A stretch of DNA of 64,000 bases from Chitinophaga pinensis. GTDB taxonomy: Bacteria > Bacteroidota > Bacteroidia > 2-12-FULL-35-15. Positions 10,825 to 30,165 of the stretch are shown in pieces (within the stretch, counting starts at the first letter, position 1; each line of letters opens with the position of its first letter). Below the pieces are notes generated by a model that did not search any database, was not told where the DNA came from, and was given only the letters and a program-made list of their open reading frames with translations. Position numbers and translations under genes: made by a program. The DNA is taken from assembly GCA_945879015.1 (NCBI GenBank), contig CAMCUO010000005.1, positions 1,306-65,305 of the forward strand, in the 5' to 3' direction.

Positions 10825-10827
10825 AAA

Positions 10828-13871: not shown

Positions 13872-14999
13872 ATGGGTATTACTTTTTGTAATCCCCATTT
13901 TGTTTTTTACACCCATTCCATTATTGTGGTCGAACCGATAAACAAACAATTGCATTTCATCATTGGCATTGGACGCTCCGGAACGACCATTCTGAATAAG
14001 ATATTAAATTCTCATCCTTCTATTCACAGTTTACCAGAGGCAAATTTCCTTCTTTTTTTTCTGAACGATTATAAAAATGTAACTCGTTTTACAAAAGAGA
14101 ATATTGAGTTAATGTTTCAGCAGATTAAGATCTTTTCATTGTCGCATCCATTGGTTGGTTGGGAATTGGACATGGAAAATGCAAAGCAAAATCTTATAGA
14201 TATTGTTTCAAAAGGTGAATTGTCCTATGCTACACTTTGTAAAACTATTTATTCTGAAATTAAAGTAACAGGGAAAGACAAGTCAAACGCTACAATGCTG
14301 ATTGATAAAAATCCTGCTTTTACTTTATCAGTTGACCAATTGGAAAAACATTTTCCTGAATCAAAATTTATTTTGTTGGTTAGAGATTACAGAGCAAATG
14401 TATTGTCGAGAAAACAAAATGCTTATTTGAAATCACCTCTTGTGCCTTATAATGCTACTCGTTGGAGAGTTTTTAATCTGATTGCCAATAAGTTTTATCA
14501 AAAGCATAAGAGCAAAGTATTGTTATTGAGATATGAAGATTTGGTGAGCGAATACGATGCATCCATGAAAAAAGTGTTTGCCTTTTTAAATGTGAAAGAG
14601 GAAGATATGAAAGAAACGGACTTGTCGAAAGTGGATGTTTCAAAAATGGAAATTGCTAATGAGCATAAAAAATACTTTTCAAAAAAATATGAAGATTTAA
14701 GTAAGCCAATTAATACCAAGAGAGTAAATGCATGGCAAACAGAATTGAGCAAAGAGGATATTGCTGAGTGTGATACTATTTGTGCGAGTTTTGCTAAAGT
14801 GTTTGGTTATACAGAATTTACTCCTGTTCCTTTTTTCAAAAAAATCGGGATTATCTTAAAGAACATTTTTATTATTATTCCTTCTTATTTAGATATTAAA
14901 AAGGATCAGTTGTTGTACCACGTTTCTGCAAAAACAAAAATGAATGCTTTGATTAAGCGACACGAAACGCTTGGTTTTATTAAGCGTTCAGATTCGTAA
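13872..14999 (+). CDS. PAPS-dependent sulfotransferase
   Basis: 5'-PSB loop GIGRSGTTIL and a 3'-PB-like VRDYRANVLSRK. Confidence 0.75.
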   Translation: MGITFCNPHFVFYTHSIIVVEPINKQLHFIIGIGRSGTTILNKILNSHPSIHSLPEANFLLFFLNDYKNVTRFTKENIELMFQQIKIFSLSHPLVGWELDMENAKQNLIDIVSKGELSYATLCKTIYSEIKVTGKDKSNATMLIDKNPAFTLSVDQLEKHFPESKFILLVRDYRANVLSRKQNAYLKSPLVPYNATRWRVFNLIANKFYQKHKSKVLLLRYEDLVSEYDASMKKVFAFLNVKEEDMKETDLSKVDVSKMEIANEHKKYFSKKYEDLSKPINTKRVNAWQTELSKEDIAECDTICASFAKVFGYTEFTPVPFFKKIGIILKNIFIIIPSYLDIKKDQLLYHVSAKTKMNALIKRHETLGFIKRSDS

Positions 15000-16310: not shown

Positions 16311-18854
16311 ATGAGGCTAATTGACAAATATTTTCCTTTAATTTCAGTTACTTCAGAAAATCGGGAGGCGCTTTTCAATATCGATAGGCTTCGTTTTTTT
16401 AGTCTGGCTTTAGCGCAATTTATTTTAATTCTTTTTATTGTTACTCGCTATAATTTTGAAAAGTCATCAGGAATAATCGATTATGCTCCTTATGTTATTC
16501 TAGTATTTGCAATTTATAGTTTTATTGCCATCCGTTTTCGTCCAGCATTTCTATTTCTTGCGTGTGTTGCACTTGTTTATGCAGCATTTGGAATTCTGGC
16601 TGGAAGTTTTTTTATTCTTATCGGATTAGGTTTGATTTTAATTTGTCACTTACCTATAAAATATACTTATCGCTTTGTATTAATATTAGCTATTGCATTT
16701 CTTCTAGCTCTTTTTAGGACAGAATTTATTTACATTCCATGGATGACTATGACTGCTATGTACATGGCTCCATTGTTTATGTTCCGACTCATTATTTATT
16801 TGTATGAAATAAAGAACGGAGTGGTACCTGCAAATAAATGGCAAAGTATCAGTTACTTTTTTATGTTTCCAAATGTGTTCTTTCTCTTCTTTCCAATTAT
16901 CGATTACAAAACCTATATCAAAACACACCTCGATTCACCTGAAAAAGAAATATGGCAAAAAGGAATTCGATGGATGCTGCGTGGATTGATTCACATCATG
17001 TGTTATCGTTTGATCTGTTTTCATTTTTTAATCGGACCAGTTGAAGTAATTGACCTTCCAACAATGTTGCAATACATGGTGGTTAATTATTCTTTGATTA
17101 TCAGACTTTCTGGTGTATTTCATTTTATGATTGGTCTGGTTTGTATGTTTGGATTCAATCTTCCTCAAATATTTGACAATTATTTTACTGCTACCAGCTT
17201 TGTTGATTTGTGGAGAAGAATAAATATTTATTGGAGAAATTTCGTTCTAAAAATATTTTTCTACCCAACAATGTTTAGGTATAAAAAAATTCTGAAAAAG
17301 AATTTGTTGGCTTTTACCATGATGACGGTTTTCTTTATAACCTGGATAATGCATAGTTATCAGTTGTTTTGGATAACAGGTGTAGTTTCTGTTAGATCCA
17401 TAGATGTTATTTTTTGGATGGTGATTGGTGCATGTATAACTACAAATTCGGTAATTGTTGAAAAATATACTTTAGCTGAAGACAGAGTAGAAAAGCCTCA
17501 ATCGGAGTTTAAAAAGTATTTCATGAAAATAATCCGAATGATGGGAATGTTTCTTTTCATGTCAATTATGTGGTCGTTATGGAATACACGTACATTGGAA
17601 GATTGGCTTTTTATTGTTTCAAAAGGAAAACAAGTTGATTCGAAACAGTTACTTCTTATTTTTTCGGTTGTAATTGGAATTATTGGTTTAGGAATTCTTG
17701 TTCAGATGATGTTGAAAAATGTTAAGTTAAAACAGCTTATTAATAGGAAACCGCACGAAACAATTTTATTGACTTTGTCTACACTTACACTTCTAACATT
17801 ATTTTCTTTCAAAGAAATTCGTTCTAATATACCTTTATCAGTGCAACATTTGTACGATCAAATTTCTGATGGTTCAGCTAACAAACTTGAGAAAACAAAT
17901 GCTGAAGCAGGTTATTACGATAAATTGATTGAAGGCGAAGAGGGCAATACAATTGGCATAGGAGGAAGGTCATTAAAAAAGATGGTGAAGAAAAATCCTT
18001 ATACCAATGCTTATATTTATCAAAACAATATTGTAAACCGAAGAATGAAACCCAATCTCAACATTGTTGGTTCGGATCATAATTTTCAAAGTAATAGTTT
18101 TGGAATAAGAGATAAAGAGTATTCTATAAAAAAACCTCTTGGAACAAAACGTTTAGCATTGCTTGGCGGCTCTTATCAAATGGGTTCTGGTGTAAATAAC
18201 AATGAAGTTTTTGAAGCCATTGCAGAAGAAAGAATGAACAAAGAGTTGGTGGATACAAATTATAAAGCTTTTGAAATTTTCAATTTTGCTGCTGGTGGTT
18301 ATTATTTGTTGCAGCATGTTGAAATAGTTCATACATCTGTATTTCAATACGACATGGATGCCTTGGTATATTTTGCGCATACTGATGAAAGAGGCAAAGT
18401 GGTAAAAGATTTTACTACTATTATCAAGAAAGAATTGCCATTGAAATACCCATTTCTTCAGCAAATTGTCAAAGAAAGCGGCATTAAATCTTATATGAGT
18501 ATTTTACAAATAAGAGAATTACTGACTCCATATGCCGATACAATTATGAAATGGGGTTATAAGGAAATATATGAGCAATGTAAAAAGAACAATGTGGTTC
18601 CTGTTTGGGCCTATATGGAAACTACTACTGAGTTTGTTGATGATGCAGAATATAATGAGCTAAAAGCATACGCTGAATCATTAGGTTTTGTAACTTTGGA
18701 TTTACGCAATACCTATGGCAATATTGATAGAGTTGAAATTCAGATTTCGGATTTAAATACTCACCCAAATGTATTAGGACATCGATTGATTGCTGAAAGG
18801 TTTTATAAAGAGTTGAAATTAAAAAGAGATAGTATTTTTAGAATTGTTGAATAA
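16311..18854 (+). CDS. MBOAT-family membrane acyltransferase (DltB/AlgI-like) fused to a C-terminal SGNH/DltD-like domain
   Basis: 847 aa. The N-terminal roughly 470 aa are polytopic, with the MBOAT signatures DLWRRINIYWRNF and the conserved His in FFITWIMHSYQLFW. After 2-3 further TMs, a soluble domain carries LLGGSYQMGSG (block I-like Ser) and DLNTHPNVLGHRLIAERF (block V-like). Confidence 0.75.
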   Translation: MRLIDKYFPLISVTSENREALFNIDRLRFFSLALAQFILILFIVTRYNFEKSSGIIDYAPYVILVFAIYSFIAIRFRPAFLFLACVALVYAAFGILAGSFFILIGLGLILICHLPIKYTYRFVLILAIAFLLALFRTEFIYIPWMTMTAMYMAPLFMFRLIIYLYEIKNGVVPANKWQSISYFFMFPNVFFLFFPIIDYKTYIKTHLDSPEKEIWQKGIRWMLRGLIHIMCYRLICFHFLIGPVEVIDLPTMLQYMVVNYSLIIRLSGVFHFMIGLVCMFGFNLPQIFDNYFTATSFVDLWRRINIYWRNFVLKIFFYPTMFRYKKILKKNLLAFTMMTVFFITWIMHSYQLFWITGVVSVRSIDVIFWMVIGACITTNSVIVEKYTLAEDRVEKPQSEFKKYFMKIIRMMGMFLFMSIMWSLWNTRTLEDWLFIVSKGKQVDSKQLLLIFSVVIGIIGLGILVQMMLKNVKLKQLINRKPHETILLTLSTLTLLTLFSFKEIRSNIPLSVQHLYDQISDGSANKLEKTNAEAGYYDKLIEGEEGNTIGIGGRSLKKMVKKNPYTNAYIYQNNIVNRRMKPNLNIVGSDHNFQSNSFGIRDKEYSIKKPLGTKRLALLGGSYQMGSGVNNNEVFEAIAEERMNKELVDTNYKAFEIFNFAAGGYYLLQHVEIVHTSVFQYDMDALVYFAHTDERGKVVKDFTTIIKKELPLKYPFLQQIVKESGIKSYMSILQIRELLTPYADTIMKWGYKEIYEQCKKNNVVPVWAYMETTTEFVDDAEYNELKAYAESLGFVTLDLRNTYGNIDRVEIQISDLNTHPNVLGHRLIAERFYKELKLKRDSIFRIVE

Positions 18855-18888: not shown

Positions 18889-19152
18889 ATGCGTGCAGAC
18901 ATTAACGAAATAAAAGAAACAGTAAAGGCGTTCGTTAATAAACGTTTTTTAAAAAATGCTGAAGGGAAAGAATTAAACTATTCAACTCCTCTCATTTCTG
19001 GTGGTATTATTGATTCGATACTTGCTATGCAGTTGGTTGTTTTCCTAGAACAAACCTACAGGTTTGAATTTCAAGCACACGAAGTTGATAAAGATAATTT
19101 AGATAACATCGATATCATTGCAGGGTTTGTTGTAAAGAAGTTGAATGCATAA
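18889..19152 (+). CDS. Stand-alone carrier protein (PCP/DltC-like)
   Basis: 87 aa. GGIIDSILAMQLVVFLE contains the phosphopantetheine Ser. Its 3' end overlaps the adenylase start. Confidence 0.8.
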   Translation: MRADINEIKETVKAFVNKRFLKNAEGKELNYSTPLISGGIIDSILAMQLVVFLEQTYRFEFQAHEVDKDNLDNIDIIAGFVVKKLNA

Positions 19153-20599
19153 GGTAAATAAGCTATATCAGCTTCTTGAAAATTCGGCAGAACAGTTTCC
19201 GGATAATACTGCTTTAGTTTTGCAAGAAAAAAAGATTAGCTATCAACAATTAGATTCATTAGCTAATAAAATAAAACAAGCTCTTCATTCTATAAACATT
19301 TCTGAAGGAAATCGTATCGCTATTTGCTCTCCTAAATCCATTGAATTTGTCGCCTCTATTTTCGGAATATTAAAAGCTGGTGCTGCTTATGTTCCTGTTG
19401 ATTATAATTCACCTATTGAACGCAATAATTTTATTATTGAAAATTGTGAAGTAGCTGCAATTATTATTACTAAAGACTTGTTAGAAAATTTTAAAAATAA
19501 TTTTACGTTTTTCGCAGATATTGGAATTGATTTAGTTTTAGCAAAAAGCAATAAGGTAACATTAAAAAAATCTTCTGAAGATTTATCCTATATTCTATAT
19601 ACTTCAGGCTCAACGGGAAATCCAAAGGGTGTAATTTATACCAATGCTGGAGCACTTGAATTTATCAATTGGAGTTCAAATACTTTTTCTCCCACTTCGA
19701 GTGATTGTTTTTCGTCGCATGCGCCTTTTCATTTCGATCTTTCTATTTTTGATTTATATGTTTCTATAAAGCATGGAGCAACTTTGGTTCTGATAAAAGA
19801 AGAAGTGGCGAAACAACCTATGCTATTGGCTCAATTAATTTCAGAACAAAAAATTAGTATTTGGTATTCTACTCCTTCAATTCTAATAATGCTTTCGGAA
19901 TATGGCAAAATGGAAAAGTATAAGTATGATAGTTTGAGATTGATATTATTTGCTGGTGAAGTTTTCCCAATTGTCAAATTAAATACATTAAAGAAAAAAG
20001 TTAAAACATCGGTTTTTTATAATCTTTATGGACCAACAGAAACAAATGTTTGTACGTATTATCAATTGCCTGAAAATATTGAAACAAATATTCCGATTGG
20101 AAAAGTATGCGAACATTATCAAGCCTGTGTTGTTGGTGATGAGCTTTTAATTAGCGGAAAAGGTGTGATGTTGGGTTATTGGAATGTTCCTGAAAAAGAT
20201 AATTTTTGGAAGGACCAAGAAAATAGATTTTGGTACAAAACGGGTGATTTGGTAGATGTTGCAGAGAGTGGAGATTATATCTTTAAAGGCAGAAGAGATA
20301 GAATGGTGAAGCGCAATGGTTATAGAATAGAATTGGATGAAATAGAAACAGGATTAAGTAAACATCCCGATATTGTTATTGCGGCTGTTGTCAGTAAGAA
20401 CAATGAAGAAGAGCAAATGATTATTTCTGCCTTTGTTGTTTTAAGAAATACTGAGCAAAAATCAGTCATAAAAATGAAGGAATATTGTATGAATCACTTA
20501 CCTTCGTATATGGTTCCCAACGACTTTATTTTTGTTGAGGATTTGCCACAAACATCAAGCAATAAAGTGGATTATCAGAAATTAAAACAATTAGCCTAA
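19145..20599 (+). CDS. Stand-alone NRPS-type adenylation enzyme (DltA/PltF-like amino acid--carrier protein ligase)
   Basis: All A-domain cores are readable: LKAGAAYVPVD, LYTSGSTGNPKGV, FHFDLSIFD, NLYGPTETNV, YKTGDL, GRRDRMVKRNGYRIELDEIE, LPSYMVP, NKVDY. Confidence 0.85.
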   Translation: MHKVNKLYQLLENSAEQFPDNTALVLQEKKISYQQLDSLANKIKQALHSINISEGNRIAICSPKSIEFVASIFGILKAGAAYVPVDYNSPIERNNFIIENCEVAAIIITKDLLENFKNNFTFFADIGIDLVLAKSNKVTLKKSSEDLSYILYTSGSTGNPKGVIYTNAGALEFINWSSNTFSPTSSDCFSSHAPFHFDLSIFDLYVSIKHGATLVLIKEEVAKQPMLLAQLISEQKISIWYSTPSILIMLSEYGKMEKYKYDSLRLILFAGEVFPIVKLNTLKKKVKTSVFYNLYGPTETNVCTYYQLPENIETNIPIGKVCEHYQACVVGDELLISGKGVMLGYWNVPEKDNFWKDQENRFWYKTGDLVDVAESGDYIFKGRRDRMVKRNGYRIELDEIETGLSKHPDIVIAAVVSKNNEEEQMIISAFVVLRNTEQKSVIKMKEYCMNHLPSYMVPNDFIFVEDLPQTSSNKVDYQKLKQLA

Positions 20600-21747
20600 T
20601 GGAACTTTCCTTATCAACAGAGCAAATGCTTATCCAGGAAAACATTATTGGTTTTGCTCAAAAAGAATTGAATAATAATATTATTGAGCGCGATAAAAAC
20701 CAGCAGTTTTTACCTGAATTATGGAAAAAATGTGCGGAACAAAAACTTACTGGATTACCTGTTGAGGAAAAATTTGGTGGTGCTGGTTTAGATCCTATTT
20801 CTTCTGTTTTAGCATTGGAAGCATTGGGTTATGGCTCCGATGACGGTGGTTTGAATTTTTCTATATGTGCACATTTATTGGCTTGTGTTGTTCCTATCTG
20901 GAAATACGGAAACGAAAATCAAAAGAAAAAATACTTGCCTGATTTATGTAATGGAAAAAAAATTGCTGTAAATGCAATGACAGAAAGCGAATCGGGTTCG
21001 GATGTTTTTAATATTAAAACAACTGCTAAAAAGCAGGATAATGGATTTGTGATAAACGGAACAAAAACGTTTTGTTCAAATGGTCCAGTTGGAGATATAA
21101 TTTTAGTTTATGCGCTTACTGATGAAAGCAAAGGGTATTATGGTGGAATTACAGCTTTCATTGTAGATAAAAATGCAAAAGGATTTAAAGTCGGTCAGAA
21201 ATATGAGAAAATGGGTTTGCGCAGTTCGGGTATTTCTGAAGTAATATTTGAAAATGTTTTTGTTTCAGAAGAAGATATGGTTGGAGGATTTGGTGGTGGA
21301 GCAACGGTGTTTAATCATTCGATGGAGTGGGAGCGAACTGGTATGGCAGCTTTGCATGTTGGAACCATGCGCAAGTTGCTTGAAAAATCAATTGATTATG
21401 TTCAAACACGCAAATCAGGAAATGAAGTAATCGGTAAAAAACAAGCTATCGCTCATCGCATTGCAAATATGAAAGTTCAATTGGAAGCAGCTTCTTTGCT
21501 TACTTATAAAGCTGCATTAGGATTAGAAAAAAATAAAGAGAACATGATTCATGCAGCTTCAGCTAAACTTTTTGTGAGTGAAGCATTTGTTGCTGCTGCG
21601 ATTGATACCATGCAACTTTTTGGTGGAAATGGTTATATGACAGAATACGGTATTGAAAGAATTGTGCGAGATGCTCTTGGAAGTACTGTTTATTCTGGCA
21701 CATCCGATATTCAACGTAACATCATTTCTCGTTTGCTTGGATTGTAA
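20599..21747 (+). CDS. Acyl-CoA dehydrogenase-family flavoprotein, probably acting on a carrier-bound substrate
   Basis: 382 aa with the ACAD fold length. The C-terminal RDALGSTVYSGTSDIQR has Ser where MCAD has the catalytic Glu, and a Glu is present in SMEWER (IVD-like position). Start shares nt 20599 with the adenylase stop. Confidence 0.8.
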   Translation: MELSLSTEQMLIQENIIGFAQKELNNNIIERDKNQQFLPELWKKCAEQKLTGLPVEEKFGGAGLDPISSVLALEALGYGSDDGGLNFSICAHLLACVVPIWKYGNENQKKKYLPDLCNGKKIAVNAMTESESGSDVFNIKTTAKKQDNGFVINGTKTFCSNGPVGDIILVYALTDESKGYYGGITAFIVDKNAKGFKVGQKYEKMGLRSSGISEVIFENVFVSEEDMVGGFGGGATVFNHSMEWERTGMAALHVGTMRKLLEKSIDYVQTRKSGNEVIGKKQAIAHRIANMKVQLEAASLLTYKAALGLEKNKENMIHAASAKLFVSEAFVAAAIDTMQLFGGNGYMTEYGIERIVRDALGSTVYSGTSDIQRNIISRLLGL

Positions 21748-21790: not shown

Positions 21791-23179
21791 ATGAAACTAT
21801 ACGATGTCATCATTATTGGCGGGGGGCCAACAGGTTCAACTGCTGCGACACTTTTAGCTCAAAAAGGGTTAAGTGTTTTGTTGTTAGAAAAAGAATCCTT
21901 CCCAAGAGAACATGTTGGTGAATCATTGATTCCGATTTCTTATGATCAATTGAATAAGTTGGGATTGGTTGAAGAAATGAAAAAAATTTCTAGTCGTAAA
22001 CCTGGAGTTAGTTTTGATGCAAATGATGGTGTGAACCGATCTTTATGGTGTTTTAAAAGTGTTATTAAAGATGAATCATATTTAGCTTTTCATGTTATCC
22101 GTTCGGCATTTGATAAGCTTTTGTTGGATAATAGTAAAAAAGTGGGAGCTGAAGTGAGAGAGCAATACATGGTGAAAAATGTAATTCTTGATAGAGCAGA
22201 TAAAATAGTAGAAGTGCATGCAACAAATGCAGAAGGCAAAGAAGAAAAATTTGAATCCAAATTTATTGTTGACGCAAGTGGACTAAGTACTTTTCTAGGA
22301 AGAAAATTGGGAGTTAAAAAAGCATATGCGGGTTTAGATAGAGTGGCTACTTGGTCGCACTGGACAAACACCGAATTTGATACAAATTTAAAAGAAGGCG
22401 TTATTAAAATTGTTTATTTGGGTGGAGAGAAAAAAGGATGGATATGGGTTATTCCTGTGAGCAAAGAGCATTTGAGCATTGGTGTGGTTGTGAATAACAG
22501 TCATGTGAAAGAAAAGAAAAAGCAATTTCAAGATTCAGAAGATTGGAAAAAAGATTATTATTTGCAGGAACTACAAGAATGTTATTTGTATAAAACGGTA
22601 TTGAAAAACGCTAAGATGGAGCATAAAGTTGCCATGGCTGGTGACTACTCTTATTACTGCGAAAAAAAGTATGGTGAAAATTATGCTTTAGTTGGAGATG
22701 CTGGTGCATTTTTAGATCCTATTTTTTCAAGCGGAATTTTTGTTGGAATGAAGAGTGCTGAATTGGTAGCGGATGGTATTGAAGCGAACCTGAAAGGAAA
22801 AGGGAATGCTGAAATGGACAAAGCTTATGTTAATATCAATGGTGCTGTCAACTTACTTGAAAAATTTATTCGCTTGTTTTATACTCCTGAAGCACTTGAT
22901 TTTTCTAAGATTGGAACTCCAGAAGGACTTTTAATGTTTAAAAAATACGAACAAACATATTCCGTTTTCCATTACTTATTAGCGGGTGATTTTTTCAATA
23001 ATTATGAAAAGTACAGTGAATTTATTGATACCATACGTGATGAGAAGACTATGGCCAAATTCGAAAATTTAATTGATCACGCGCACAGCGCCTTACCTAA
23101 AAGTTGCGGAGAAGATTTTGAAGAAATGTATGGTGAAATGACGCATAAAATTGAGTTTGATCATAAGGCGTTTGAGTAA
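21791..23179 (+). CDS. FAD-dependent halogenase-like oxidoreductase
   Basis: Start taken at MKLYDVIIIGGGPTGS (GxGxxG). Also carries FPREHVGESLIP, GWIWVIP (WxWxIP) and GDAGAFLDPIFSSG. The ORF-track start at 21653 overlaps the ACAD gene and is rejected. Confidence 0.7.
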   Translation: MKLYDVIIIGGGPTGSTAATLLAQKGLSVLLLEKESFPREHVGESLIPISYDQLNKLGLVEEMKKISSRKPGVSFDANDGVNRSLWCFKSVIKDESYLAFHVIRSAFDKLLLDNSKKVGAEVREQYMVKNVILDRADKIVEVHATNAEGKEEKFESKFIVDASGLSTFLGRKLGVKKAYAGLDRVATWSHWTNTEFDTNLKEGVIKIVYLGGEKKGWIWVIPVSKEHLSIGVVVNNSHVKEKKKQFQDSEDWKKDYYLQELQECYLYKTVLKNAKMEHKVAMAGDYSYYCEKKYGENYALVGDAGAFLDPIFSSGIFVGMKSAELVADGIEANLKGKGNAEMDKAYVNINGAVNLLEKFIRLFYTPEALDFSKIGTPEGLLMFKKYEQTYSVFHYLLAGDFFNNYEKYSEFIDTIRDEKTMAKFENLIDHAHSALPKSCGEDFEEMYGEMTHKIEFDHKAFE

Positions 23180-23349: not shown

Positions 23350-24063
23350 TCAAAAAAACCAAGCACTAACATTCATCACAATCTTCCTTCCCCAAGAAGG
23401 AACATGTTTTAAAAAATAAAAATTCTGAAATTTTAATTGCCACCAAAGTGTTGCATTTACTTTAGCACAAATTTGTTTTTTGTCATTTTCAAATTCTTCA
23501 CGTAAAATATCAATAATCAAAATCCACCGTTCATTTTCTGTTTTGTTCCATACTTCATGTTCGTATGCATCACAGAAGGCAAAGAGTTTTCCATTTTTCC
23601 ATGAAATTTGCTCATTTCCAACTCTCATTCCAATTTCCGGTAAGCTATTTTTGCAGTTTAAAGTAAAGTGACATCGATACATCACATTGCTATCACCATG
23701 ATGTGGTTTTATGGAAGTATTTGCATTTAAAATGGAAAACGAAGCATGTGTCATTGCTGGAATGCTTTCGATTATTCTTGTCGTCTCCGGACATTTTTCA
23801 CAATTTTCTTTTTTCTTTTTGCTCCAAACATACAATGGAAAAATAGTCCAGTTCTCTGCTTTGCTGGCAAGTGATTTATTCATGTAAGGAATAATATTTT
23901 TATCCTTTGATTCAACAAGTTTGGTGAATTCTTTTAAAATTAAATCGTAATTGTCTTCAAAAAGAGCCACCCATTTTTTGTCATGGATATCAAAAAAATT
24001 AGGCTCTGGGCCTTTGTAAGCGCTATTCTCTGCAAACGAATACCATTTCTTTGAATTTCCCAT
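23350..24063 (-). CDS. Aspartyl/asparaginyl beta-hydroxylase (AspH/LpxO) family Fe(II)/2OG dioxygenase, paralog 1
   Basis: KPHHGDSNVMYRCHFTL and FCDAYEHEVWN. Confidence 0.75.
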   Translation of the reverse strand: MGNSKKWYSFAENSAYKGPEPNFFDIHDKKWVALFEDNYDLILKEFTKLVESKDKNIIPYMNKSLASKAENWTIFPLYVWSKKKKENCEKCPETTRIIESIPAMTHASFSILNANTSIKPHHGDSNVMYRCHFTLNCKNSLPEIGMRVGNEQISWKNGKLFAFCDAYEHEVWNKTENERWILIIDILREEFENDKKQICAKVNATLWWQLKFQNFYFLKHVPSWGRKIVMNVSAWFF

Positions 24064-24806
24064 TAGTAAACTTTAAATAGATTAACACTTACTATAGCCA
24101 GTCGTGTAAATGGATGTAAACATTTTGCTAAAAACTTAATTGTTCTAGCAGATAATTTTTTAAGAAAAGTATATTTCTGCCATCTCTTTTGTAAAAAAAG
24201 CGAAGTCATTACTGTTGCGCAAATTTTTTCTTTTTCATTTTTAAATTCATCACGCACAACATCCACCACAAAAATAAAACGATCTTTCTCCGAATTATTA
24301 TACGCTTCATGTTGATAGGCATCCATAAACATCAACCATTTCCCATTTTTCCATGGACGAACTTCCTCTTTAACTTTAAAGGCACATTCTGGAAGTCCAG
24401 CCGGAATTTCCAGTCCTAAATGACATCTATAAATAGTATTTGTATCTCCGCAATGTGGATGAATTTTACTTTTTGCTTCTAATAAATTAAAAGAGGAAGA
24501 AGTAATTTCTGGATATTTTTGAATAATGGAATAAGTTATTGGAAAATATTTCTGATTTTTAAACTGTTGAATTCCCCATGTTCTCAGTGGAATTGTTTTC
24601 CAGCTATTTTCACGCGAAACCATTGATTTTATAAAATAACCAATGAGGTTGTCGCTTTTAAGATATTCTTTGAGTTCTTTATAAATGGCTTCGTAATTTT
24701 CTTCAAACTCTTTTGTCCAGCGAAATTCTTCTGGTTTAGTAAAAGGAGCTTCCGTTCCATGATATTCGTCATTTACGTTATATATGTTGTACCAAGCCTT
24801 TTGCAT
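24063..24806 (-). CDS. AspH/LpxO-family dioxygenase, paralog 2
   Basis: HPHCGDTNTIYRCHLGLEIP and FMDAYQHEAYN. Its stop shares nt 24063 with the paralog 1 start. Confidence 0.75.
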   Translation of the reverse strand: MQKAWYNIYNVNDEYHGTEAPFTKPEEFRWTKEFEENYEAIYKELKEYLKSDNLIGYFIKSMVSRENSWKTIPLRTWGIQQFKNQKYFPITYSIIQKYPEITSSSFNLLEAKSKIHPHCGDTNTIYRCHLGLEIPAGLPECAFKVKEEVRPWKNGKWLMFMDAYQHEAYNNSEKDRFIFVVDVVRDEFKNEKEKICATVMTSLFLQKRWQKYTFLKKLSARTIKFLAKCLHPFTRLAIVSVNLFKVY

Positions 24807-24850
24807 CCACTCTTTATTTATTATATTTGTTTTAGTAAAAACTCTAGCAA

Positions 24851-25537
24851 ATGTCTGAATTCGAATTTACAAATAAAAATCCTAAGTTCTTTTATGATTC
24901 TGCTCAGTTTCCTTTTTTGAAGCCATTGCTTGATAATGTTGGGGTTATTCGAAAAGAGTTGCAAGATATTATTGCTTCAGGAAAGGAAAATCAATGGATG
25001 AATACGTTTCCACATTATGTAAAATCTGACGAGCACAAAGCTTGGAAGGTATTTTCATTTTTGTTCTTTAATATGAAGCTTCCCAACAACGCAAAATTAT
25101 GTCCGAAAACGGCTGAACTCATTTATTCTATTACAGAGATTCTTTCTTGTGATTATTCTTATATGAATCCAGGAACTCATGTGCTGCCTCACAAAGGTTA
25201 TTCACGAATGGTTTTACGTTGTCACATTGCTTTGATTGTTCCAGATGAGGAACTTTGTGCTTTACGTGTTGGAAATGAAATTAAACATTGGAAAGAAGGC
25301 GAACTTATAATTTTTGATGATTCATTTGAACATGAAGCATGGAATAGATCCGACAAAAGAAGAGTTGTTTTAATGTTTGATATTCCAAATCCCCTTTGGG
25401 GATATACTGCTCATGAAATTTCAAAATATAAAATTGATAAAATTGATGATCCTTTTCTTTTATCGATGGCTCCCAAAGATGAATGGATAAAAGCGTTTGA
25501 AAAAGGAATTTTTCCTTTGGAGAGTTTTAAAGATTAA
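24851..25537 (+). CDS. AspH/LpxO-family dioxygenase, paralog 3
   Basis: LPHKGYSRMVLRCHIALIVP and FDDSFEHEAWN. It is divergent from paralog 2 across a 44-bp spacer containing TATATTTG (24821-24828). Confidence 0.75.
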   Translation: MSEFEFTNKNPKFFYDSAQFPFLKPLLDNVGVIRKELQDIIASGKENQWMNTFPHYVKSDEHKAWKVFSFLFFNMKLPNNAKLCPKTAELIYSITEILSCDYSYMNPGTHVLPHKGYSRMVLRCHIALIVPDEELCALRVGNEIKHWKEGELIIFDDSFEHEAWNRSDKRRVVLMFDIPNPLWGYTAHEISKYKIDKIDDPFLLSMAPKDEWIKAFEKGIFPLESFKD

Positions 25538-25602: not shown

Positions 25603-26526
25603 TTATTTCTTCTTCACAAAAACTTTCTTCACCAAACCAACCGCTTTCTCAACAACTAAACCTACAATAATTCCAGCAAGGACACAGGATAGTGCTTTTA
25701 TAAACCAGGCCAAAGCAGACATGTTAGCCAAAGTGTGTTCGAGATCGTGAATTAAATTGGCAGAAAATTCAAAGCCGTGAGCAATGATTTCTGCACCCAC
25801 CCAAAGCATGGCTGCGGTACCCACATAACTCAAAATTTTTAGGAAATGCGGCATGAACCTGACAAGACCAAGTCCGAATTTTTGCAGGACAGGATGAAAT
25901 TTATCCTTGGCTAAGTGAAGTCCTATGTCGTCTGCTTTAACAATCAATCCAACAAATCCGTAGACTGCAATAGTAATAAAAACACCAACAGCCAGCATCA
26001 CCAAAATCTGCTTCATCATTGGCTGGTCGGTGACATAACTATAAGCAATGGCAATAATTTCTGCGGAGAGAATAATGTCAGTGCGAACCGCACCTGTAAT
26101 CCTTTCTTTTTCCAATTCATCTGGCGTGATGACTTTTACTTCATCCATTGTTAGAGGCAGATCAGGATGTTTGCTAAACATTGAATGCAACTTTTCGTAC
26201 CCTTCGAAACATAAATAAGCTCCACCTAACATTAAAATTGGTGTGATTGCCCAAGGAGCTAAGTACCCGAGCAACAAAGCTGCAGGAGTTAAAATAAGAA
26301 GTTTATTTATGAGAGATCGTTTGGCAATCCTGTAAATGATAGTTAGTTCACGTGATGGATCGAGTCCAACAACGTACTTTGGCGTAACGGCTGTATCGTC
26401 AATGACAATGCCCGAAACCTTCCCGCTAGTTTTGATTACCTGTGCAGGTACATCACTCAAGTTGGCTGCAGTTGTTTTTACTAAAGCTGAAATATCATCT
26501 AAAAGTGCAAAAAAACCCGAAGCCAT
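25603..26526 (-). CDS. DUF808 (YedI-like) inner-membrane protein
   Basis: 307 aa, polytopic, with N-terminus MASGFFALLDDISALVK typical of the family (recalled, not searched). Confidence 0.55.
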   Translation of the reverse strand: MASGFFALLDDISALVKTTAANLSDVPAQVIKTSGKVSGIVIDDTAVTPKYVVGLDPSRELTIIYRIAKRSLINKLLILTPAALLLGYLAPWAITPILMLGGAYLCFEGYEKLHSMFSKHPDLPLTMDEVKVITPDELEKERITGAVRTDIILSAEIIAIAYSYVTDQPMMKQILVMLAVGVFITIAVYGFVGLIVKADDIGLHLAKDKFHPVLQKFGLGLVRFMPHFLKILSYVGTAAMLWVGAEIIAHGFEFSANLIHDLEHTLANMSALAWFIKALSCVLAGIIVGLVVEKAVGLVKKVFVKKK

Positions 26527-26584: not shown

Positions 26585-27196
26585 TTAGAGCAAAGCATTT
26601 ATCGCCTCCATATTCTCATCACAAACTTCACCGCTAAATTTTAATTCCGCATTTTGATCGCTCAAAATTGCAGCAGCTTTATTTAGTTTTGCACCAATTG
26701 TTTTGTAGTCATCCACGTGCAATTCGTATAATTGATTGTCCACATGCTCTTGATCTGACAGTAATTTGTAGCCAAGTAACTTGTTGTAATGAATGGCTCT
26801 ATCATTGTCGCTCAATATTCTGATACGAGAAATTTTGCTGACATTTAATTTTAAAAACATAAAATTCAAAAGACACAATGTTGCAAAAACGGCTGCAAAG
26901 GAGCTGATGTAGTCTTTGTCACTAATAAAAATTCCTCCTTCGCCAAATCCTAAGCCTACATCATAATTTTTTGCATTGATGAGTCCAACTTGTTTGCCTT
27001 CAAATTCAATAATAAAATAATAATTGTTTCTGTTGTTTACGGATTTGAACCAAATTTTTTGAGCTTCAGGTGTAATGAAATTACGGTATTCCATGTAATT
27101 AGCAATATCACTTTGGTTTCTCCAATTACGAACCATCTCAATATCTTTTTCTTGCACTCTTACAAGCCGAACGCCATATTGTTCAAGAACTAACAT
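26585..27196 (-). CDS. GNAT-family N-acetyl/acyltransferase (PseH-like size)
   Basis: 203 aa with an N-terminal RLVRVQEKDIEMVRNWRN typical of sugar-N-acetyltransferase GNATs. Start overlaps the GT2 stop. Confidence 0.6.
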   Translation of the reverse strand: MLVLEQYGVRLVRVQEKDIEMVRNWRNQSDIANYMEYRNFITPEAQKIWFKSVNNRNNYYFIIEFEGKQVGLINAKNYDVGLGFGEGGIFISDKDYISSFAAVFATLCLLNFMFLKLNVSKISRIRILSDNDRAIHYNKLLGYKLLSDQEHVDNQLYELHVDDYKTIGAKLNKAAAILSDQNAELKFSGEVCDENMEAINALL

Positions 27197-28107
27197 ATGA
27201 TTTCGTCTTCGTTATAGGAAGGCGCATTGTTCAAAGCTTTTAACATCTGACTTATATATTGTGCGACAATTCCAATGCAGAAAATAATTATACCTGTAGA
27301 AAAAAGAATACTTACAATCAAAGAAGTATAACCTTCCACATCAATTTTTAAGTAAAACTTTTTAATGATGTAAAAAATTCCAATAATGAAATTGATAGTA
27401 GCTAAACTAAATCCAATATAGGTTACCAATTTTAATGGTAGAGTAGATGAAAACATGATGATGGTAGAAGTCATCTTAAACAATCCTGCTACTTTGTAAC
27501 GTTGCTTATGTATGTAATCAGGATTTGCATTTACATCTACAAAGGCTAATTTTTTTGTGTACCATAAACACAATTCATCAATAAAAACAAATTGTTTGTG
27601 ATTGTGTACCAACTTATCAGTCAGTGATTTTTTTAATAATCTAAAACTGCTTCCTTTTCCTTTTTGTGGGCCTTCCAGCTTTGCTAGTATTTTATATGCT
27701 CCAGAAAAAATTCCTCTAAAAAAAGGTTGATTTTGTTTTGGATACAATCCATAAACCAGATCAGCATTTGTATTTTTTTGATTATCGATTAGCTTTTGAA
27801 TTTCTGAAGGGTGAACTTCTAAATCATCATCAATGGTAATAACAAAATCTCCTTTCGCATGTTTGAAGCCACAAACAGTAGCTCCGTGCTGACCGAAATT
27901 TTTACTTAAGCGAATAATGGTTGTGTTGGATGAACTTGCTTTTATTTTTTTTAATACTTCCCAGCTATTGTCGGTACTACAATCATCCACAAAAATAATT
28001 TCGTAGGAATATTTGTTTTCAAAAAATGAAACAATGCTTTGGTGCACCTTCTCAAGTGCATTTTCAGAACCATAAACTGGAATAACTATGCTATAGTTTG
28101 TGCTCAT
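27190..28107 (-). CDS. Family 2 glycosyltransferase, polyprenyl-phosphate sugar transferase type (ArnC/GtrB-like)
   Basis: IVIPVYGSE...IIFVDDCSTDNS, a DxD in TIDDDLEVH, and two C-terminal TM helices. Confidence 0.75.
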   Translation of the reverse strand: MSTNYSIVIPVYGSENALEKVHQSIVSFFENKYSYEIIFVDDCSTDNSWEVLKKIKASSSNTTIIRLSKNFGQHGATVCGFKHAKGDFVITIDDDLEVHPSEIQKLIDNQKNTNADLVYGLYPKQNQPFFRGIFSGAYKILAKLEGPQKGKGSSFRLLKKSLTDKLVHNHKQFVFIDELCLWYTKKLAFVDVNANPDYIHKQRYKVAGLFKMTSTIIMFSSTLPLKLVTYIGFSLATINFIIGIFYIIKKFYLKIDVEGYTSLIVSILFSTGIIIFCIGIVAQYISQMLKALNNAPSYNEDEIIC

Positions 28108-28847
28108 ATTTTACTATTTAAAAGTAATCCACCATCCATTTTTATAACTGTTCCAGTAATTCTTTTTGATGCGGCACTTAATAAAAACGCAGCAGTATTT
28201 GCAACATCAATTGGTTCACTTATTCCAAGTGGGTAACGACTTTCAATTTCTGCAAATTCTTCTTTTGAATAAATTTGCTCTGCTTGTTCCAAAATTTTTG
28301 TCCGAACCAGACCAGGAGCAATGGTGTTTACTCGTATTTTTTTAGAAGCTGTTTCCAAAGCCAATCCTAAAGCAAAAGACTCTAATGCAGCTTTTGATGC
28401 AGTATAAAGCGAACCTCCCGTGTATGGATGATTTGCAGAAATGGATGAAATGAAAACAACTGATGCTTCGTTATTTAATTTTTTTGCAGATAATAATCCA
28501 CTACTCAGCAATACAGCCGATGAAAAATTTATTTTAAAAAGTTCATCAATGTGTCTTGATTTTAAAAACTTTATTGGAAGTGGATTGATAATTCCAGCAC
28601 AATGAACGAAACCATCAATAGCAGGTATTTTAGAAATCAAATAATTAATTTCCTCTTCGTTTGACAAATCAGCAATAAAAAAGCCTGCTTTATTTTTTAA
28701 TAATGCTTTTGTTTTATTTAATTCATCAGCATTGCGACCAGTGATAATGATATTAGCACCCAAAGAATCACACAATTGCGCAGTTGCTCTTCCTATTCCA
28801 GAAGTAGCACCAGTCACCAAAATTGTTTTATTCTCAAGCTCTGTCAT
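28104..28847 (-). CDS. Short-chain dehydrogenase/reductase (FabG-like ketoreductase)
   Basis: VTGATSGIGRATA and YTASKAAL (YxxxK). Confidence 0.8.
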   Translation of the reverse strand: MTELENKTILVTGATSGIGRATAQLCDSLGANIIITGRNADELNKTKALLKNKAGFFIADLSNEEEINYLISKIPAIDGFVHCAGIINPLPIKFLKSRHIDELFKINFSSAVLLSSGLLSAKKLNNEASVVFISSISANHPYTGGSLYTASKAALESFALGLALETASKKIRVNTIAPGLVRTKILEQAEQIYSKEEFAEIESRYPLGISEPIDVANTAAFLLSAASKRITGTVIKMDGGLLLNSKI

Positions 28848-29892
28848 ATTCTAAAAGTTTTGTATAAACATTTTCGGTTTCTAAAATAACACTTCCCCAG
28901 GAATATCCAACTCCGAAACCACTCAATAACAAAGATAATTTTTTTGTTCGTAATGCTTCTTTCATTTTGTAGCACATGGTTAATGGAATAGAAGCGGAGC
29001 TAGTGTTCCCAAAAACATCTATAGAATAAGGCACTTTTTCAAGATCTATTTTTAATTTTTTTCTCACACTTTCGTTGATGAGCTTGTTGGCTTGATGCAT
29101 AACGAAGTAATCTGTATTCTCTTTTGATTTATTACTTTTTTCATAAAGTGTAGTAATATTTGAAGCCGCTTCTTTCAATGCAAAATTAAAAACATCCATT
29201 CCATTTAAAATCAAATGCTTTTTTGCTCTACTAATTCCTGGTTCAATTTCTACTAAATCTTCCAATGTTTTATCAAACGGTGTTCTGCAACTTCCATGTT
29301 CAATTATGATTGCATTTTTTCCGGAGCCATCGCTTTGTAAATTAAAATGCATTTCATTTTTAGTTTGTGAATGCTCTATCAATGTTGCGGTTCCTGCATC
29401 TCCAAAAAGTGGATAAGTGCTTTTATCGGTATATGTTGTAGATGTAGATGACTTATCTCCAACTATCAATAAGCCTTTTTTTAATTGTCCGCTTTGCATT
29501 AAGTTGGTGATTACCGACAATCCATAAACATATCCAGAACAACCTAAGCTGATATCAAATGCGATACAATCTTTTTTTAATCCTAAACGGTTTTGTAATA
29601 AAATGGAAGTCGCTGGTAAAATATAATCGGGTGACTGAGAAACAAAAATCAGGACATCAATTTCTTCAGCACAATTATATTTATCTAATAAATGTTTAGC
29701 TGCTGTAAAACATAAATCGGAGCAAGCAACATCTTTAGCGGCAACTCTTCTTTCTTTTATTCCAGTAGTTTTTGCAAATAATTCTCTTTCCTCAACTGAA
29801 ATATGATTGTAATCGGCAGTTTTTTCTATGTGAGTTGGCACACAGCTGGAGATTGCAATAATATTCGTTTTAGTAGTAGATAGATAGGCCAC
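28834..29892 (-). CDS. KAS III (FabH)-like ketosynthase, copy 2
   Basis: Cys-His-Asn triad contexts: SLGCSGYVYG, MHQAN, GNTSSASIP. Confidence 0.8.
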   Translation of the reverse strand: MAYLSTTKTNIIAISSCVPTHIEKTADYNHISVEERELFAKTTGIKERRVAAKDVACSDLCFTAAKHLLDKYNCAEEIDVLIFVSQSPDYILPATSILLQNRLGLKKDCIAFDISLGCSGYVYGLSVITNLMQSGQLKKGLLIVGDKSSTSTTYTDKSTYPLFGDAGTATLIEHSQTKNEMHFNLQSDGSGKNAIIIEHGSCRTPFDKTLEDLVEIEPGISRAKKHLILNGMDVFNFALKEAASNITTLYEKSNKSKENTDYFVMHQANKLINESVRKKLKIDLEKVPYSIDVFGNTSSASIPLTMCYKMKEALRTKKLSLLLSGFGVGYSWGSVILETENVYTKLLEYDRA

Positions 29893-30129
29893 TTATTTTA
29901 ATTTTTCGATAGTAATATTATAAAGATCTTGGATTGTTTGTGCCGATTTTAAATCAGCGCCATTTAATAATGCATTAAAATTCGCATCAATGTATGCAAT
30001 GATAATTAAGGCATGCATACTGCTCCAACCTTTTATACTTCTAAAGTTTGTAGCGGAGCTAAGAGTCCCAGGTTCTAAATCTTCAAATTCAACTTCTAAA
30101 CCTTTCGTAAATTCTTCTATGCTATTCAT
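29893..30129 (-). CDS. Acyl carrier protein
   Basis: 78 aa. KGWSSMHALIIIAYID has the Ser attachment context. It abuts the downstream KASIII with no gap. Confidence 0.7.
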   Translation of the reverse strand: MNSIEEFTKGLEVEFEDLEPGTLSSATNFRSIKGWSSMHALIIIAYIDANFNALLNGADLKSAQTIQDLYNITIEKLK

Positions 30130-30165
30130 AAATGTAAATATATTAAAATATACAATTCAAGATGA

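Follow-up and report, generated by a model that had tools for sequence, protein, structure and literature searches.

Thiotemplated halopyrrole biosynthesis is known as a natural-product pathway and Dlt-type, MBOAT-mediated acylation as a part of cell-wall physiology, and a locus in which genes resembling both are joined raises the question whether its flavin-dependent halogenase is real and what it serves. We analyzed a stretch of 64,000 nucleotides from Chitinophaga pinensis (GCA_945879015.1, contig CAMCUO010000005.1, positions 1,306 to 65,305 of the forward strand), in the following called the window, to which all coordinates refer. A first-pass annotation made from the sequence alone had noticed four halogenase-type signatures in the ORF at 21791-23179, had proposed the lysine in SSRKPGVSF as the chloramine-forming residue of carrier-substrate halogenases, and had noted that the ORF lies directly downstream of genes for a peptidyl carrier protein (PCP), an adenylase and an ACAD. 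Each of these specific claims survived testing. The gene very probably encodes a real flavin-dependent halogenase (FDH), which probably chlorinates or brominates a proline-derived pyrrole held on a carrier protein. Moreover, it is the last gene of a tight operon with a DltB-like membrane protein, and this suggests, by inference from synteny and predicted folds, that the halogenated pyrrole is attached to the cell surface. The first-pass annotation had missed this membrane protein, which travels with the cassette across phyla, and it had missed that the halogenase lies outside the PltA clade and that about a third of the family members are orphans.

Sequence Signatures and Predicted Fold of the Halogenase

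The ORF at 21791-23179 on the + strand translates into 462 amino acids and ends in a stop codon. An alternative TTG start at 21653 would yield 508 amino acids, but the ATG at 21791 matches the 460-470-aa length and the N-terminus of over 100 homologues. The relevant elements are the following:

21818-21835 (+), IIIGGGPTGS, with the GxGxxG FAD-binding motif at G10-G15
21920-21922 (+), Glu44 in the HVGESLIP block of LLEKESFPREHVGESLIP, the equivalent of CmlS E44
21998-22000 (+), Lys70 in SSRKPGVSF, the predicted chloramine-forming catalytic lysine
22436-22456 (+), GWIWVIP (G216-P222), the WxWxIP halogenase signature
22694-22735 (+), GDAGAFLDPIFSSG (G302-G315), the second FAD-binding (GD) motif

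Lys70 lies 26 residues after Glu44, close to the distance of about 30 residues given in the first-pass annotation. It aligns with CndH K76 and CmlS K71 (the CmlS chain carries an offset of +20), with the second Lys of FPKKFG in Mpy16, PltA and ChlB4, and with the corresponding Lys of FasV; this position would correspond to K73 in PltA and K79 in PrnA. In 34 family members of 47-100% identity Lys70 and Glu44 are invariant, as are G10, G11, G12, G15, W217, P222, G302 and D303, while W219 is at least 90% conserved. The WxWxIP motif is kept in nearly all of 28 aligned family members, with minor variants in three, and in all six reference halogenases aligned. The N-terminal block is shared with CndH, CmlS, Mpy16, PltA and FasV, in the form LLE(K/R)xxFPRxxxGESL with CndH, CmlS and FasV.

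These similarities are far beyond chance. The Pfam model Trp_halogenase (PF04820) scores 6.5e-26, with 91.6 bits against a cutoff of 21, and a phmmer search of the PDB gave 6e-50 to 1e-37 for eight solved halogenase sequences, i.e., FasV (8zop, 173.6 bits), CndH (156.6 bits), Mpy16, CmlS (148.8 bits), two Bmp2 entries, PltA and ChlB4, followed by RadH at 6e-32. In a Foldseek search of the PDB with an AF2 model (pLDDT 84.9), ranks 1-40 were halogenases plus the uncharacterized entry 3nix, and the first non-halogenase, the monooxygenase PnpA, appeared at rank 41. The best fold match was PltA with TM 0.78/0.83. 3nix, a structural-genomics entry from Cytophaga hutchinsonii of the same phylum called a flavoprotein/dehydrogenase and without assigned function, matches with TM 0.78/0.89 and a sequence E-value of 5e-32.

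Although the protein shares the GxGxxG, HVGESL, catalytic Lys, WxWxIP and GDA motifs with the pyrrolyl-S-carrier-protein halogenases PltA, Mpy16 and Bmp2 of the pyoluteorin, marinopyrrole and bmp pathways, the identity over the structural alignments is only about 26-28%. A neighbor-joining tree places its family outside the PltA/Mpy16/ChlB4 clade, and it carries RKPGVSF instead of the FPKKFGAAW motif and lacks the insertion of roughly 30 residues that follows the Lys in this clade. The family is a coherent, uncharacterized clade with its own signature, RKPGVxF and KKGWIWVIP, and a conserved C-terminal region with an invariant Cys439. Compared with the "variant B" halogenases CndH and CmlS its C-terminal domain is different and shorter, the pathway context differs, and the score against the CmlS equivalog model NF033113 is 191.4 bits and thereby far below the cutoff of 900.

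A Predicted Proline-to-Pyrrole Cassette in a Five-Gene Operon

The halogenase gene closes a co-directional operon:

16311-18854 (+), an 847-aa membrane protein, predicted DltB-like MBOAT fused to an SGNH domain
18889-19152 (+), an 87-aa PCP with the presumed phosphopantetheine site Ser43 in GIIDS (19015-19017)
19145-20599 (+), a 484-aa stand-alone adenylating enzyme, predicted L-proline--[carrier protein] ligase
20599-21747 (+), a 382-aa FAD enzyme of the acyl-CoA-dehydrogenase family, predicted L-prolyl-S-PCP dehydrogenase
21791-23179 (+), the halogenase

The genes are separated by a 34-bp gap, an 8-bp overlap, a 1-bp overlap and a 43-bp gap, respectively. A scan for sigma-70 promoters and terminators was at chance level, but the tool applied does not cover Bacteroidota promoters.

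The PCP is closest to the Bmp1 carrier domain of 6CXT (4.6e-7), which is the Bmp3-Bmp1 complex (PMC8857579), followed by PltL and PigG, while DltC scores only 0.8. The Pfam model PP-binding is weak at 0.0094, and the best NCBIfam hit, ACP_for_OlsHI (75 bits against a cutoff of 130), led to a planctomycete GH3-type ornithine-lipid pathway that we judged tangential. The adenylase scores 1.4e-70 for AMP-binding, and its best single-domain PDB hits are PltF (6o6e, 273 bits) and PigI (7thn, 230 bits), against 191-199 bits for DltA. Notably, its specificity code DLFYLALVCK equals the published stand-alone L-Pro consensus L(L/F)YLALVC (PMC3874040). The anchor positions were validated with a sequence that should correspond to GrsA, which returned the correct Phe code DAWTIAAICK, and the code of the adenylase is conserved in cassette orthologues from three phyla. 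A D-Ala Dlt operon was rejected because of the Pro code, and the DltA models of NCBIfam also remain below cutoff.

The dehydrogenase is predicted to form the pyrrole. Its best NCBIfam hits are PigA (3.7e-125, 418 bits against a cutoff of 500) and RedW (5e-114, 381 bits against a cutoff of 650), both below the equivalog cutoffs, and its best PDB hits are AnaB (4irn, 3e-95), Bmp3 (6cxt) and PigA (5zw0), all aligned over the full length. It contains YSGTS, with Ser at the position where typical ACADs appear to carry YEGTS with the MCAD-type catalytic Glu; AnaB shares YSGTS, and Bmp3 and PigA have FSGT at the same place. Moreover, a Glu in GISEV lies at what is likely the position of the IVD-type base. 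However, the best PDB hit AnaB seems to stop at the two-electron pyrroline. A tblastn search of the dehydrogenase against plasmids, performed to obtain annotated PltF/PigI neighbors, gave only unannotated or generic hits.

A Predicted DltB-Like MBOAT-SGNH Fusion Protein

Sequence searches with the 847-aa protein found no Pfam or PDB match, and a profile search gave only weak GDSL hits, so that structure prediction was needed. Homologues are named DltB, AlgI or SGNH by their sources. The AF2 model (pLDDT 83.6) gave DltB (6bug/8jem) as the best Foldseek hits, with E = 1.9e-7 for the top hit, followed by HHAT and PORCN, while the C-terminal part (about residues 560-847) matches GDSL esterases. 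The following residues are invariant in 36 sequences:

17223-17225 (+), N305
17352-17354 (+), H348
18171-18173 (+), S621
18762-18764 (+), H818
N658 of the same protein

A family profile aligns N305 and H348 to the "RWH" and "WHG" histidines of a canonical PF03062 MBOAT, the first His being replaced by Asn (RRIN instead of RWH). The canonical SGNH acid position is Asn816 in the window protein, with Asp814 nearby. A crude hydropathy topology was ambiguous, and an extracytoplasmic location of the SGNH domain is inferred only from a K/R-rich segment before the last TM helix and from signal-anchored unfused homologues.

The arrangement follows the four-part logic of the Dlt system (DltA-DltC-DltB-DltD), which D-alanylates teichoic acids, with a stand-alone adenylase, a small carrier protein, an MBOAT and an SGNH-type partner, DltD being probably SGNH-like as well, encoded by contiguous and co-directional genes. 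It differs from it in the Pro code, in the carrier resembling Bmp1 and PltL more than DltC, in the two inserted on-carrier tailoring enzymes, in the fusion of MBOAT and SGNH, and in the host, a Gram-negative Bacteroidota without teichoic acid.

Conservation of the Cassette and Its Surroundings

Of 50 related loci with at least 7 kb upstream, 28 carry the adenylase and the dehydrogenase, and 23 of these also carry an MBOAT, which is the MBOAT-SGNH fusion in 22 and a canonical MBOAT in one. Five have adenylase, dehydrogenase and halogenase without an MBOAT within 10 kb, six further loci have an MBOAT only, and 15 are orphans with none of the partner genes within 10 kb. One orphan is a 67%-identical paralogue in a genome that also carries the cassette, and the family is therefore not obligately carrier-linked. 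The loci that carry adenylase and dehydrogenase come from Bacteroidia including Saprospiraceae, from Rubricoccaceae and from Chloroflexota. In Calditrichia an unfused layout exists, consisting of an adenylase, two halogenases, a carrier, a canonical MBOAT and three signal-anchored proteins. Planctomycetota loci have halogenase plus MBOAT-SGNH, and a search for a carrier protein or adenylase in these loci found none. One related locus, here L023 (L-numbers denote related loci), is a compact operon that holds only MBOAT-SGNH, PCP, adenylase, dehydrogenase and two halogenases, of which one is a true PltA-clade enzyme. The linkage also survives rearrangement, as in L026.

In the window the operon is surrounded by further genes:

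13872-14999 (+), sulfotransferase 1 (NoeE-like; Sulfotransfer_3 2.4e-27, NoeE the only NCBIfam hit), present in L006 and L026
15053-16096 (-), sulfotransferase 2
23350-24063 (-), 24063-24806 (-) and 24851-25537 (+), three Asp/Asn-beta-hydroxylase-family (OlsC/LpxO-like) dioxygenases (Asp_Arg_Hydrox 1e-39 to 1e-43; OlsC and LpxO the best NCBIfam models, both below cutoff), syntenic in L001, L006, L007 and L026
26585-27196 (-), PseH-like GNAT
27190-28107 (-), ArnC/PgfS-like GT2
28104-28847 (-), SDR
28834-29892 (-), FabH-type KASIII
29893-30129 (-), 78-aa putative ACP
30166-31179 (-), second KASIII
31280-33304 (+), 674-aa multi-pass membrane protein with C-terminal TPR repeats, which may be a periplasmic glycan transferase or polymerase, although only TPR families were hit; syntenic in L002, L006, L007 and L026

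The six genes at 26585-31179, a presumed glycan- or lipid-building module, are syntenic in L006 and L007 and present but rearranged in L026. GC content is a uniform 31-37% across the window and the locus sits between uvrD-like and ribosomal-protein genes, for which reason we rejected a horizontally acquired island.

A Model for the Pathway and Alternative Explanations

Taken at a level of confidence that is better than even but not high, the halogenase is the tailoring step of a Dlt-like, thiotemplated acylation pathway. In this model the adenylase activates L-proline and loads it onto Ser43 of the PCP, which is strongly inferred from specificity code and homology, and the dehydrogenase oxidizes prolyl-S-PCP to pyrrolyl-2-carboxyl-S-PCP, based on homology to AnaB, Bmp3 and PigA. 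The halogenase would use FADH2, O2 and halide to make hypohalous acid, which Lys70, positioned by Glu44, captures as a haloamine to halogenate the pyrrole ring while it is still on the carrier; motifs, fold and context support this step, while no activity was measured for any component and no flavin reductase is encoded in the locus. The MBOAT domain would then accept the halopyrrolyl group at the cytoplasmic face and pass it through the membrane via His348, and the SGNH domain (Ser621/His818) would esterify an extracytoplasmic acceptor, probably the sulfated, N-acylated glycan or glycolipid built by the sulfotransferases, the ArnC-like GT2, the GNAT, the KASIII/ACP/SDR genes and the TPR membrane protein. 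This last step rests on predicted fold and conserved synteny only. A homologous MBOAT-SGNH in Rhodocaloribacter litoris lies in a GT4/Wzy/sulfotransferase polysaccharide locus, which fits a glycan-acylating role.

It is possible, but unlikely, that the cassette instead yields a diffusible small molecule, i.e., free halopyrrole-2-carboxylate or a further-elaborated metabolite, and that the MBOAT-SGNH protein is an ordinary polysaccharide O-acetyltransferase that merely neighbors it or has an SGNH domain acting only as a releasing thioesterase. The characterized thiotemplated halopyrroles pyoluteorin, marinopyrrole and the bmp products seem to be small molecules, five loci lack an MBOAT within 10 kb, the MBOAT-SGNH family occurs without the cassette in R. 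litoris, and the two KASIII enzymes and the ACP could extend a pyrrolyl starter. However, no thioesterase, condensation domain, NRPS or PKS is present in the operon, the KASIII module is absent from L019, L021 and L023, MBOAT-SGNH lies immediately upstream and stays linked through rearrangement and across phyla, the L023 operon contains nothing beyond the cassette, MBOAT-SGNH and halogenases, and in Calditrichia a carrier is found next to a canonical MBOAT as in dlt. Still less likely, the enzyme is a halogenase acting on a free aromatic or lipid substrate or on another carrier-bound acyl group. The orphans lie at conserved housekeeping positions (Na+/H+ exchanger-halogenase and IspG-halogenase-PaaABC). 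Carrier proteins were not detected in the Planctomycetota loci either, the partner adenylase in L016 lacks Asp235 (code YGPILALAIK) and no dehydrogenase is present, so the acyl group there is not proline-derived, and in L023 the PltA-type enzyme could by itself perform the pyrrole halogenation. On the other hand, in the window the enzyme is the only halogenase and follows the dehydrogenase in one operon, 28 of 50 loci keep adenylase and dehydrogenase next to it, and PltA is the best fold match over nearly its full length including the C-terminal helices.

That the protein is a non-halogenating group-A flavoprotein such as a geranylgeranyl reductase, a UbiH-like hydroxylase or a QhpG/LodB-like monooxygenase is very unlikely. 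Many sources annotate homologues as "geranylgeranyl reductase" or "flavin-dependent dehydrogenase", and QhpG and LodB reach 118 and 115 bits. However, the geranylgeranyl reductase model TIGR02032 scores 146.8 bits and remains below its cutoff of 158.8 and below the CmlS model, UbiH scores 40 bits against a cutoff of 392, and GGR and FixC structures score only about 1e-11 compared with 1e-32 to 6e-50 for halogenases. The halogenase residues and the fold ranking likewise speak against this assignment.

Implications for Envelope Biology

In the literature searched we found no report of such a surface decoration: searches for MBOAT-SGNH proteins combined with a carrier and a halogenase, for links of DltB to pyrrole or prolyl groups, for pyrrole-2-carboxyl groups on polysaccharides (a badly discriminating search), and for MBOATs and halogenases in Bacteroidetes gave nothing relevant, as did those for the 10-residue adenylase codes and for 8ZOP, although absence there is no proof of novelty. 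Even the conservative reading documents a halopyrrole-type cassette in a phylum for which no published example was found in the same literature. Moreover, the locus provides a directly testable five-gene unit and a large uncharacterized FDH clade for biocatalysis, with over 100 clusters at 47% identity or more. More tentatively, and with somewhat less than even likelihood, the locus exemplifies a previously undescribed pathway of Bacteroidota, Rhodothermota and Chloroflexota, with partial or variant loci in Planctomycetota and Calditrichota, in which a Dlt-like MBOAT/SGNH machine exports a carrier-bound, enzymatically halogenated pyrrole-2-carboxyl group, or other acyl groups in the variants, and esterifies it onto a cell-envelope glycan or glycolipid. 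This would be the first halogenated, NRPS-tailored decoration of a bacterial cell surface and would make the RKPGV/KKGWIWVIP halogenases a new functional clade of FDHs dedicated to envelope modification. If the model holds, it joins two systems that have been studied separately, and it would imply that uncultured freshwater and soil Bacteroidia, and members of other phyla, display organohalogen groups on their surface.

Gene Model and Operon Context

Translation of positions 21791–23179 (+) yields a 462-aa protein ending in a stop codon, which contains all the strings noted in the first-pass annotation, i.e., IIIGGGPTGS, LLEKESFPREHVGESLIP, SSRKPGVSF, GWIWVIP, and GDAGAFLDPIFSSG, and their positions were verified. 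While an automated ORF list extends the frame to a TTG at 21653, the ATG at 21791 fits the length of 460–470 aa and the N-terminus of more than 100 homologs. The neighboring genes are as described in the first-pass annotation, and they are all encoded on the + strand, separated by an 8-bp overlap, a 1-bp overlap, and a 43-bp gap:

18889–19152 (+), 87-aa carrier protein (PCP)
19145–20599 (+), 484-aa adenylase
20599–21747 (+), 382-aa ACAD, the predicted dehydrogenase
21791–23179 (+), 462-aa predicted flavin-dependent halogenase

Assignment to the Flavin-Dependent Halogenases

The Pfam model Trp_halogenase scores 91.6 bits against a cutoff of 21. The best NCBIfam model is CmlS with 191 bits, which is far below the equivalog cutoff, so that the protein is a relative and not an ortholog, and the geranylgeranyl-reductase superfamily model falls below its own cutoff (146.8 against 158.8). 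Compared with PDB sequences, the top ten matches are FasV (8zop), CndH, Mpy16, CmlS, Bmp2 (two entries), PltA, ChlB4, the uncharacterized Cytophaga protein 3nix, and RadH (6e-50 to 6e-32), while GGR and FixC score only about 1e-11. In the alignments obtained from this search Lys70 falls on CndH K76 and on CmlS K71 (this chain has a +20 tag offset), and Glu44 falls on CmlS E44. A second search recovered PltA and ChlB4, and in a joint MAFFT alignment K70 matches the second Lys of their FPKKFG motif. Moreover, in 34 family members at 47–100% identity K70, E44, W217, P222, G302, and D303 are invariant and W219 is nearly so. An AF2 model (pLDDT 84.9) has PltA as its best structural neighbor, at TM 0.78/0.83 over about 447 columns. 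Ranks 1–40 of this structural comparison are halogenases plus 3nix, and the first ordinary monooxygenase appears at rank 41. The two findings that would have spoken against the first-pass annotation as a halogenase, a missing Lys or orthology to non-halogenating flavoproteins, were therefore not obtained.

A neighbor-joining tree of 28 family members plus six solved halogenases places the protein in a coherent clade with its own signatures, RKPGVxF around the Lys and KKGWIWVIP. This clade is separate from PltA/Mpy16/ChlB4, which share an insertion of roughly 30 aa after the Lys that the family lacks, and it is also separate from FasV, CndH, and CmlS. The protein represents a new lineage of the predicted carrier-substrate type and not a PltA ortholog.

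A Predicted Proline-to-Pyrrole Cassette Upstream of the Halogenase Gene

The best single-domain PDB hits of the adenylase are the L-proline–carrier-protein ligases PltF (273 bits) and PigI (230 bits), ahead of DltA at 191–199 bits. The ten specificity residues were extracted by alignment to GrsA-PheA, and the GrsA segment returned the correct Phe code, DAWTIAAICK, which validates the anchors. The adenylase gives DLFYLALVCK, an exact match to the published L-Pro consensus of stand-alone enzymes, L(L/F)YLALVC (PMC3874040). The code is conserved in cassette orthologs from Bacteroidia and Saprospiraceae, while it is DLLYLALVCK in a Chloroflexota locus and DLLYNALVCK in a Rubricoccaceae locus. The ACAD aligns end to end with AnaB (322 bits), Bmp3 (295 bits), and PigA (291 bits), ahead of generic ACADs at 257 bits or less, and its best NCBIfam models are PigA and RedW, both below cutoff. 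Like those enzymes it has a Ser in its 'YSGTS' motif, where typical ACADs probably have 'YEGTS' carrying the MCAD-type catalytic Glu, and it has a Glu in 'GISEV' at what is presumably the IVD-type base position. For the carrier the best PDB hit is the Bmp1 carrier domain of 6CXT (4.6e-7), which is the Bmp3–Bmp1 complex (PMC8857579), followed by PltL and PigG, while DltC scores 0.8. The best NCBIfam hit of the carrier is 'ACP_for_OlsHI' at 75 bits against a cutoff of 130, i.e., the carrier of a recently described GH3-dependent ornithine-lipid pathway in planctomycetes (PMC12493201).

A Predicted MBOAT-SGNH Fusion Protein Encoded Upstream of the Carrier Protein

Directly upstream of the PCP gene, following a 34-bp gap and on the same strand, lies a gene that was not interpreted in the first-pass annotation. 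It encodes an 847-aa polytopic membrane protein, for which no Pfam or PDB sequence match was found. Some sources call its homologs DltB, AlgI, or SGNH hydrolase. An alignment of 36 sequences shows that N305, H348, S621, N658, and H818 are invariant. The AF2 model (pLDDT 83.6) matches DltB best (6bug, 8jem; E about 1e-7), then HHAT, PORCN, DGAT1, and ACAT, while its C-terminal domain matches GDSL/SGNH esterases, although the canonical SGNH acid position is Asn816 in this protein, with Asp814 nearby. A profile of the family aligns 'LWRRINIYW' and 'WIMHSYQ' to 'LWQRWHISL' and 'GFWHGAKW' of a canonical PF03062 MBOAT, and N305 and H348 are therefore the MBOAT Asn/His-His pair.

Conservation of the Gene Linkage

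Two scans supplied the loci for comparison, which comprise 24 loci from GTDB species genomes, all of them MAGs, and 80 metagenome loci. From these, 50 non-redundant loci with at least 7 kb upstream of the halogenase gene were analyzed for partner genes.

Table. Partner genes within the flank of the halogenase gene in 50 non-redundant loci (partner genes: number of loci)
MBOAT-SGNH + Pro-type adenylase + dehydrogenase: 22
Canonical MBOAT + adenylase + dehydrogenase: 1
Adenylase + dehydrogenase only: 5
MBOAT-SGNH only: 2
Canonical MBOAT only: 4
Adenylase only: 1
None of these (orphans): 15

The linkage survives gene-order rearrangement in L026, a metagenome contig of 4.5 Mb, and it recurs in Saprospiraceae (locus L021), Rubricoccaceae (L023), and Chloroflexota (L019, whose 969-aa protein is 31% identical over 834 residues). 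The Rubricoccaceae MAG locus L023 is a compact operon of MBOAT-SGNH, PCP, adenylase, dehydrogenase, the family halogenase, and a second halogenase (L023:11406–12764; FPHKFGAAW, WVWQIPI), which falls inside the PltA/Mpy16/ChlB4 clade. This independently supports a pyrrolyl-S-PCP intermediate, and it could mean that two different halogenation steps occur on one carrier. A Calditrichia MAG locus (L016:7002–17286) has an unfused Dlt-like layout of an adenylase, two family halogenases, a 90-aa carrier, a canonical PF03062 MBOAT, and three signal-anchored paralogs of about 370 aa with no Pfam match. It has no dehydrogenase gene and its adenylase lacks Asp235, so the acyl group there differs, and this is probably a different halogenated acyl group on the same export logic. 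Moreover, an MBOAT-SGNH homolog in the isolate Rhodocaloribacter litoris lies in a GT4/Wzy/GT2/sulfotransferase polysaccharide locus without the cassette, which suggests that the general job of this family is glycan O-acylation.

The Wider Locus

The operon is located between a UvrD-like helicase gene and what looks, judged from ORF sizes, like the rpsL/EF-G ribosomal gene block. Within this region two NoeE-like sulfotransferases are encoded in addition to the following features, which are listed together with those further out in the window:

1191–2549 (-) and 7978–9090 (+), a tyrosine-recombinase (phage integrase family) gene at the left end of the window and a T9SS-sorted (Por_Secre_tail) secreted protein
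2773–6427, GldG-like ABC auxiliary genes
23350–25537, three adjacent paralogous Asp/Asn-beta-hydroxylase-family (OlsC/LpxO-like) dioxygenase genes, immediately after the halogenase gene
25603–26526 (-), DUF808 membrane protein gene
26585–31179 (-), module of a PseH-like GNAT, an ArnC/PgfS-like polyprenyl-phosphate GT2, an SDR, two FabH-type KASIII enzymes, and a 78-aa ACP
33640–52814, region that looks, from ORF sizes and order only, like the rpsL/rpsG/EF-G, S10, spc, and alpha ribosomal-protein operons, with, e.g., a 707-aa EF-G-sized ORF, a 448-aa SecY-sized ORF, and a 330-aa RpoA-sized ORF

The set of sulfotransferase, dioxygenase, GNAT, GT2, SDR, KASIII, and ACP genes, which also includes a gene for a TPR-tailed polytopic membrane protein, is syntenic in the two loci L006 and L007 and present but rearranged in L026. 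The three dioxygenase genes are syntenic with the halogenase gene in L006, L007, L026, and a further locus, L001, and their substrate could be a lipid acyl chain, a sugar, or the carrier-bound prolyl group. The DUF808 gene lies between the third dioxygenase gene and the GNAT gene, which are directly adjacent in L006 and L007, so that it looks like a local insertion. In light of what is generally known of O-antigen and Arn/Gtr-type pathways, the set looks like machinery for a sulfated, N-acylated sugar carried on a polyprenyl phosphate, which makes this a plausible acceptor, although by inference only. The GC content is a uniform 31–37%, so there is no sign of recent acquisition, and with the apparent ribosomal-protein operons next to it the cluster appears to sit in a core chromosomal region.

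Proposed Mechanism and Alternative Explanations

From the sequences we strongly infer that the adenylase loads L-Pro on Ser43 of the PCP and that the dehydrogenase aromatizes it to pyrrolyl-2-carboxyl-S-PCP, although AnaB, the closest structure, probably stops at the two-electron oxidation. Using FADH2, O2, and halide, the halogenase would then form a Lys70 haloamine and halogenate the ring. From predicted fold and synteny we further infer that the MBOAT takes the acyl group from the PCP and relays it through His348, and that the SGNH domain, if it is extracytoplasmic, esterifies an extracytoplasmic glycan or lipid.

However, 30% of the family loci are orphans, and two sets of these sit at conserved housekeeping positions, i.e., following a Na+/H+ exchanger gene in L003 (10001–11377) and L027 (10001–11392), and between ispG and paaABC in L018 and L028 (both at about 10001–11370). 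These paralogs have all catalytic residues intact, and the L027 copy is 67% identical to the protein studied here and co-exists with a cassette copy in the same genome. Furthermore, Planctomycetota MAGs pair the family halogenase directly with MBOAT-SGNH (L011:9911–14125 and L014:7163–11407), with a sulfotransferase and a GT4 nearby in L014, while no carrier protein or adenylase was detectable within 10 kb, which is unexplained. These cases mean that the family is not strictly tied to a pyrrolyl-PCP substrate, and they keep alive the alternative explanations of a small-molecule product or of a different substrate. Taken together, the interpretation of the first-pass annotation is supported. 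We are highly confident that the gene encodes a functional flavin-dependent halogenase and consider it likely that its substrate in this operon is pyrrolyl-S-PCP, whereas a Dlt-style delivery of the product to the envelope is at best about as likely as not and is proposed tentatively.

Relation to Known Systems

Full-text searches in an incomplete body of literature found no paper linking MBOAT or DltB-type proteins with halogenases or pyrrolyl carrier proteins, which is only weak evidence of novelty. The protein is predicted to work like PltA, Bmp2, and Mpy16, but it is not in their clade. Similarly, the operon would work like dlt, but it is not a dlt operon, as it has a Pro code, a PltL/Bmp1-like carrier, two predicted on-carrier tailoring enzymes, and a fused MBOAT-SGNH, in a Gram-negative host.
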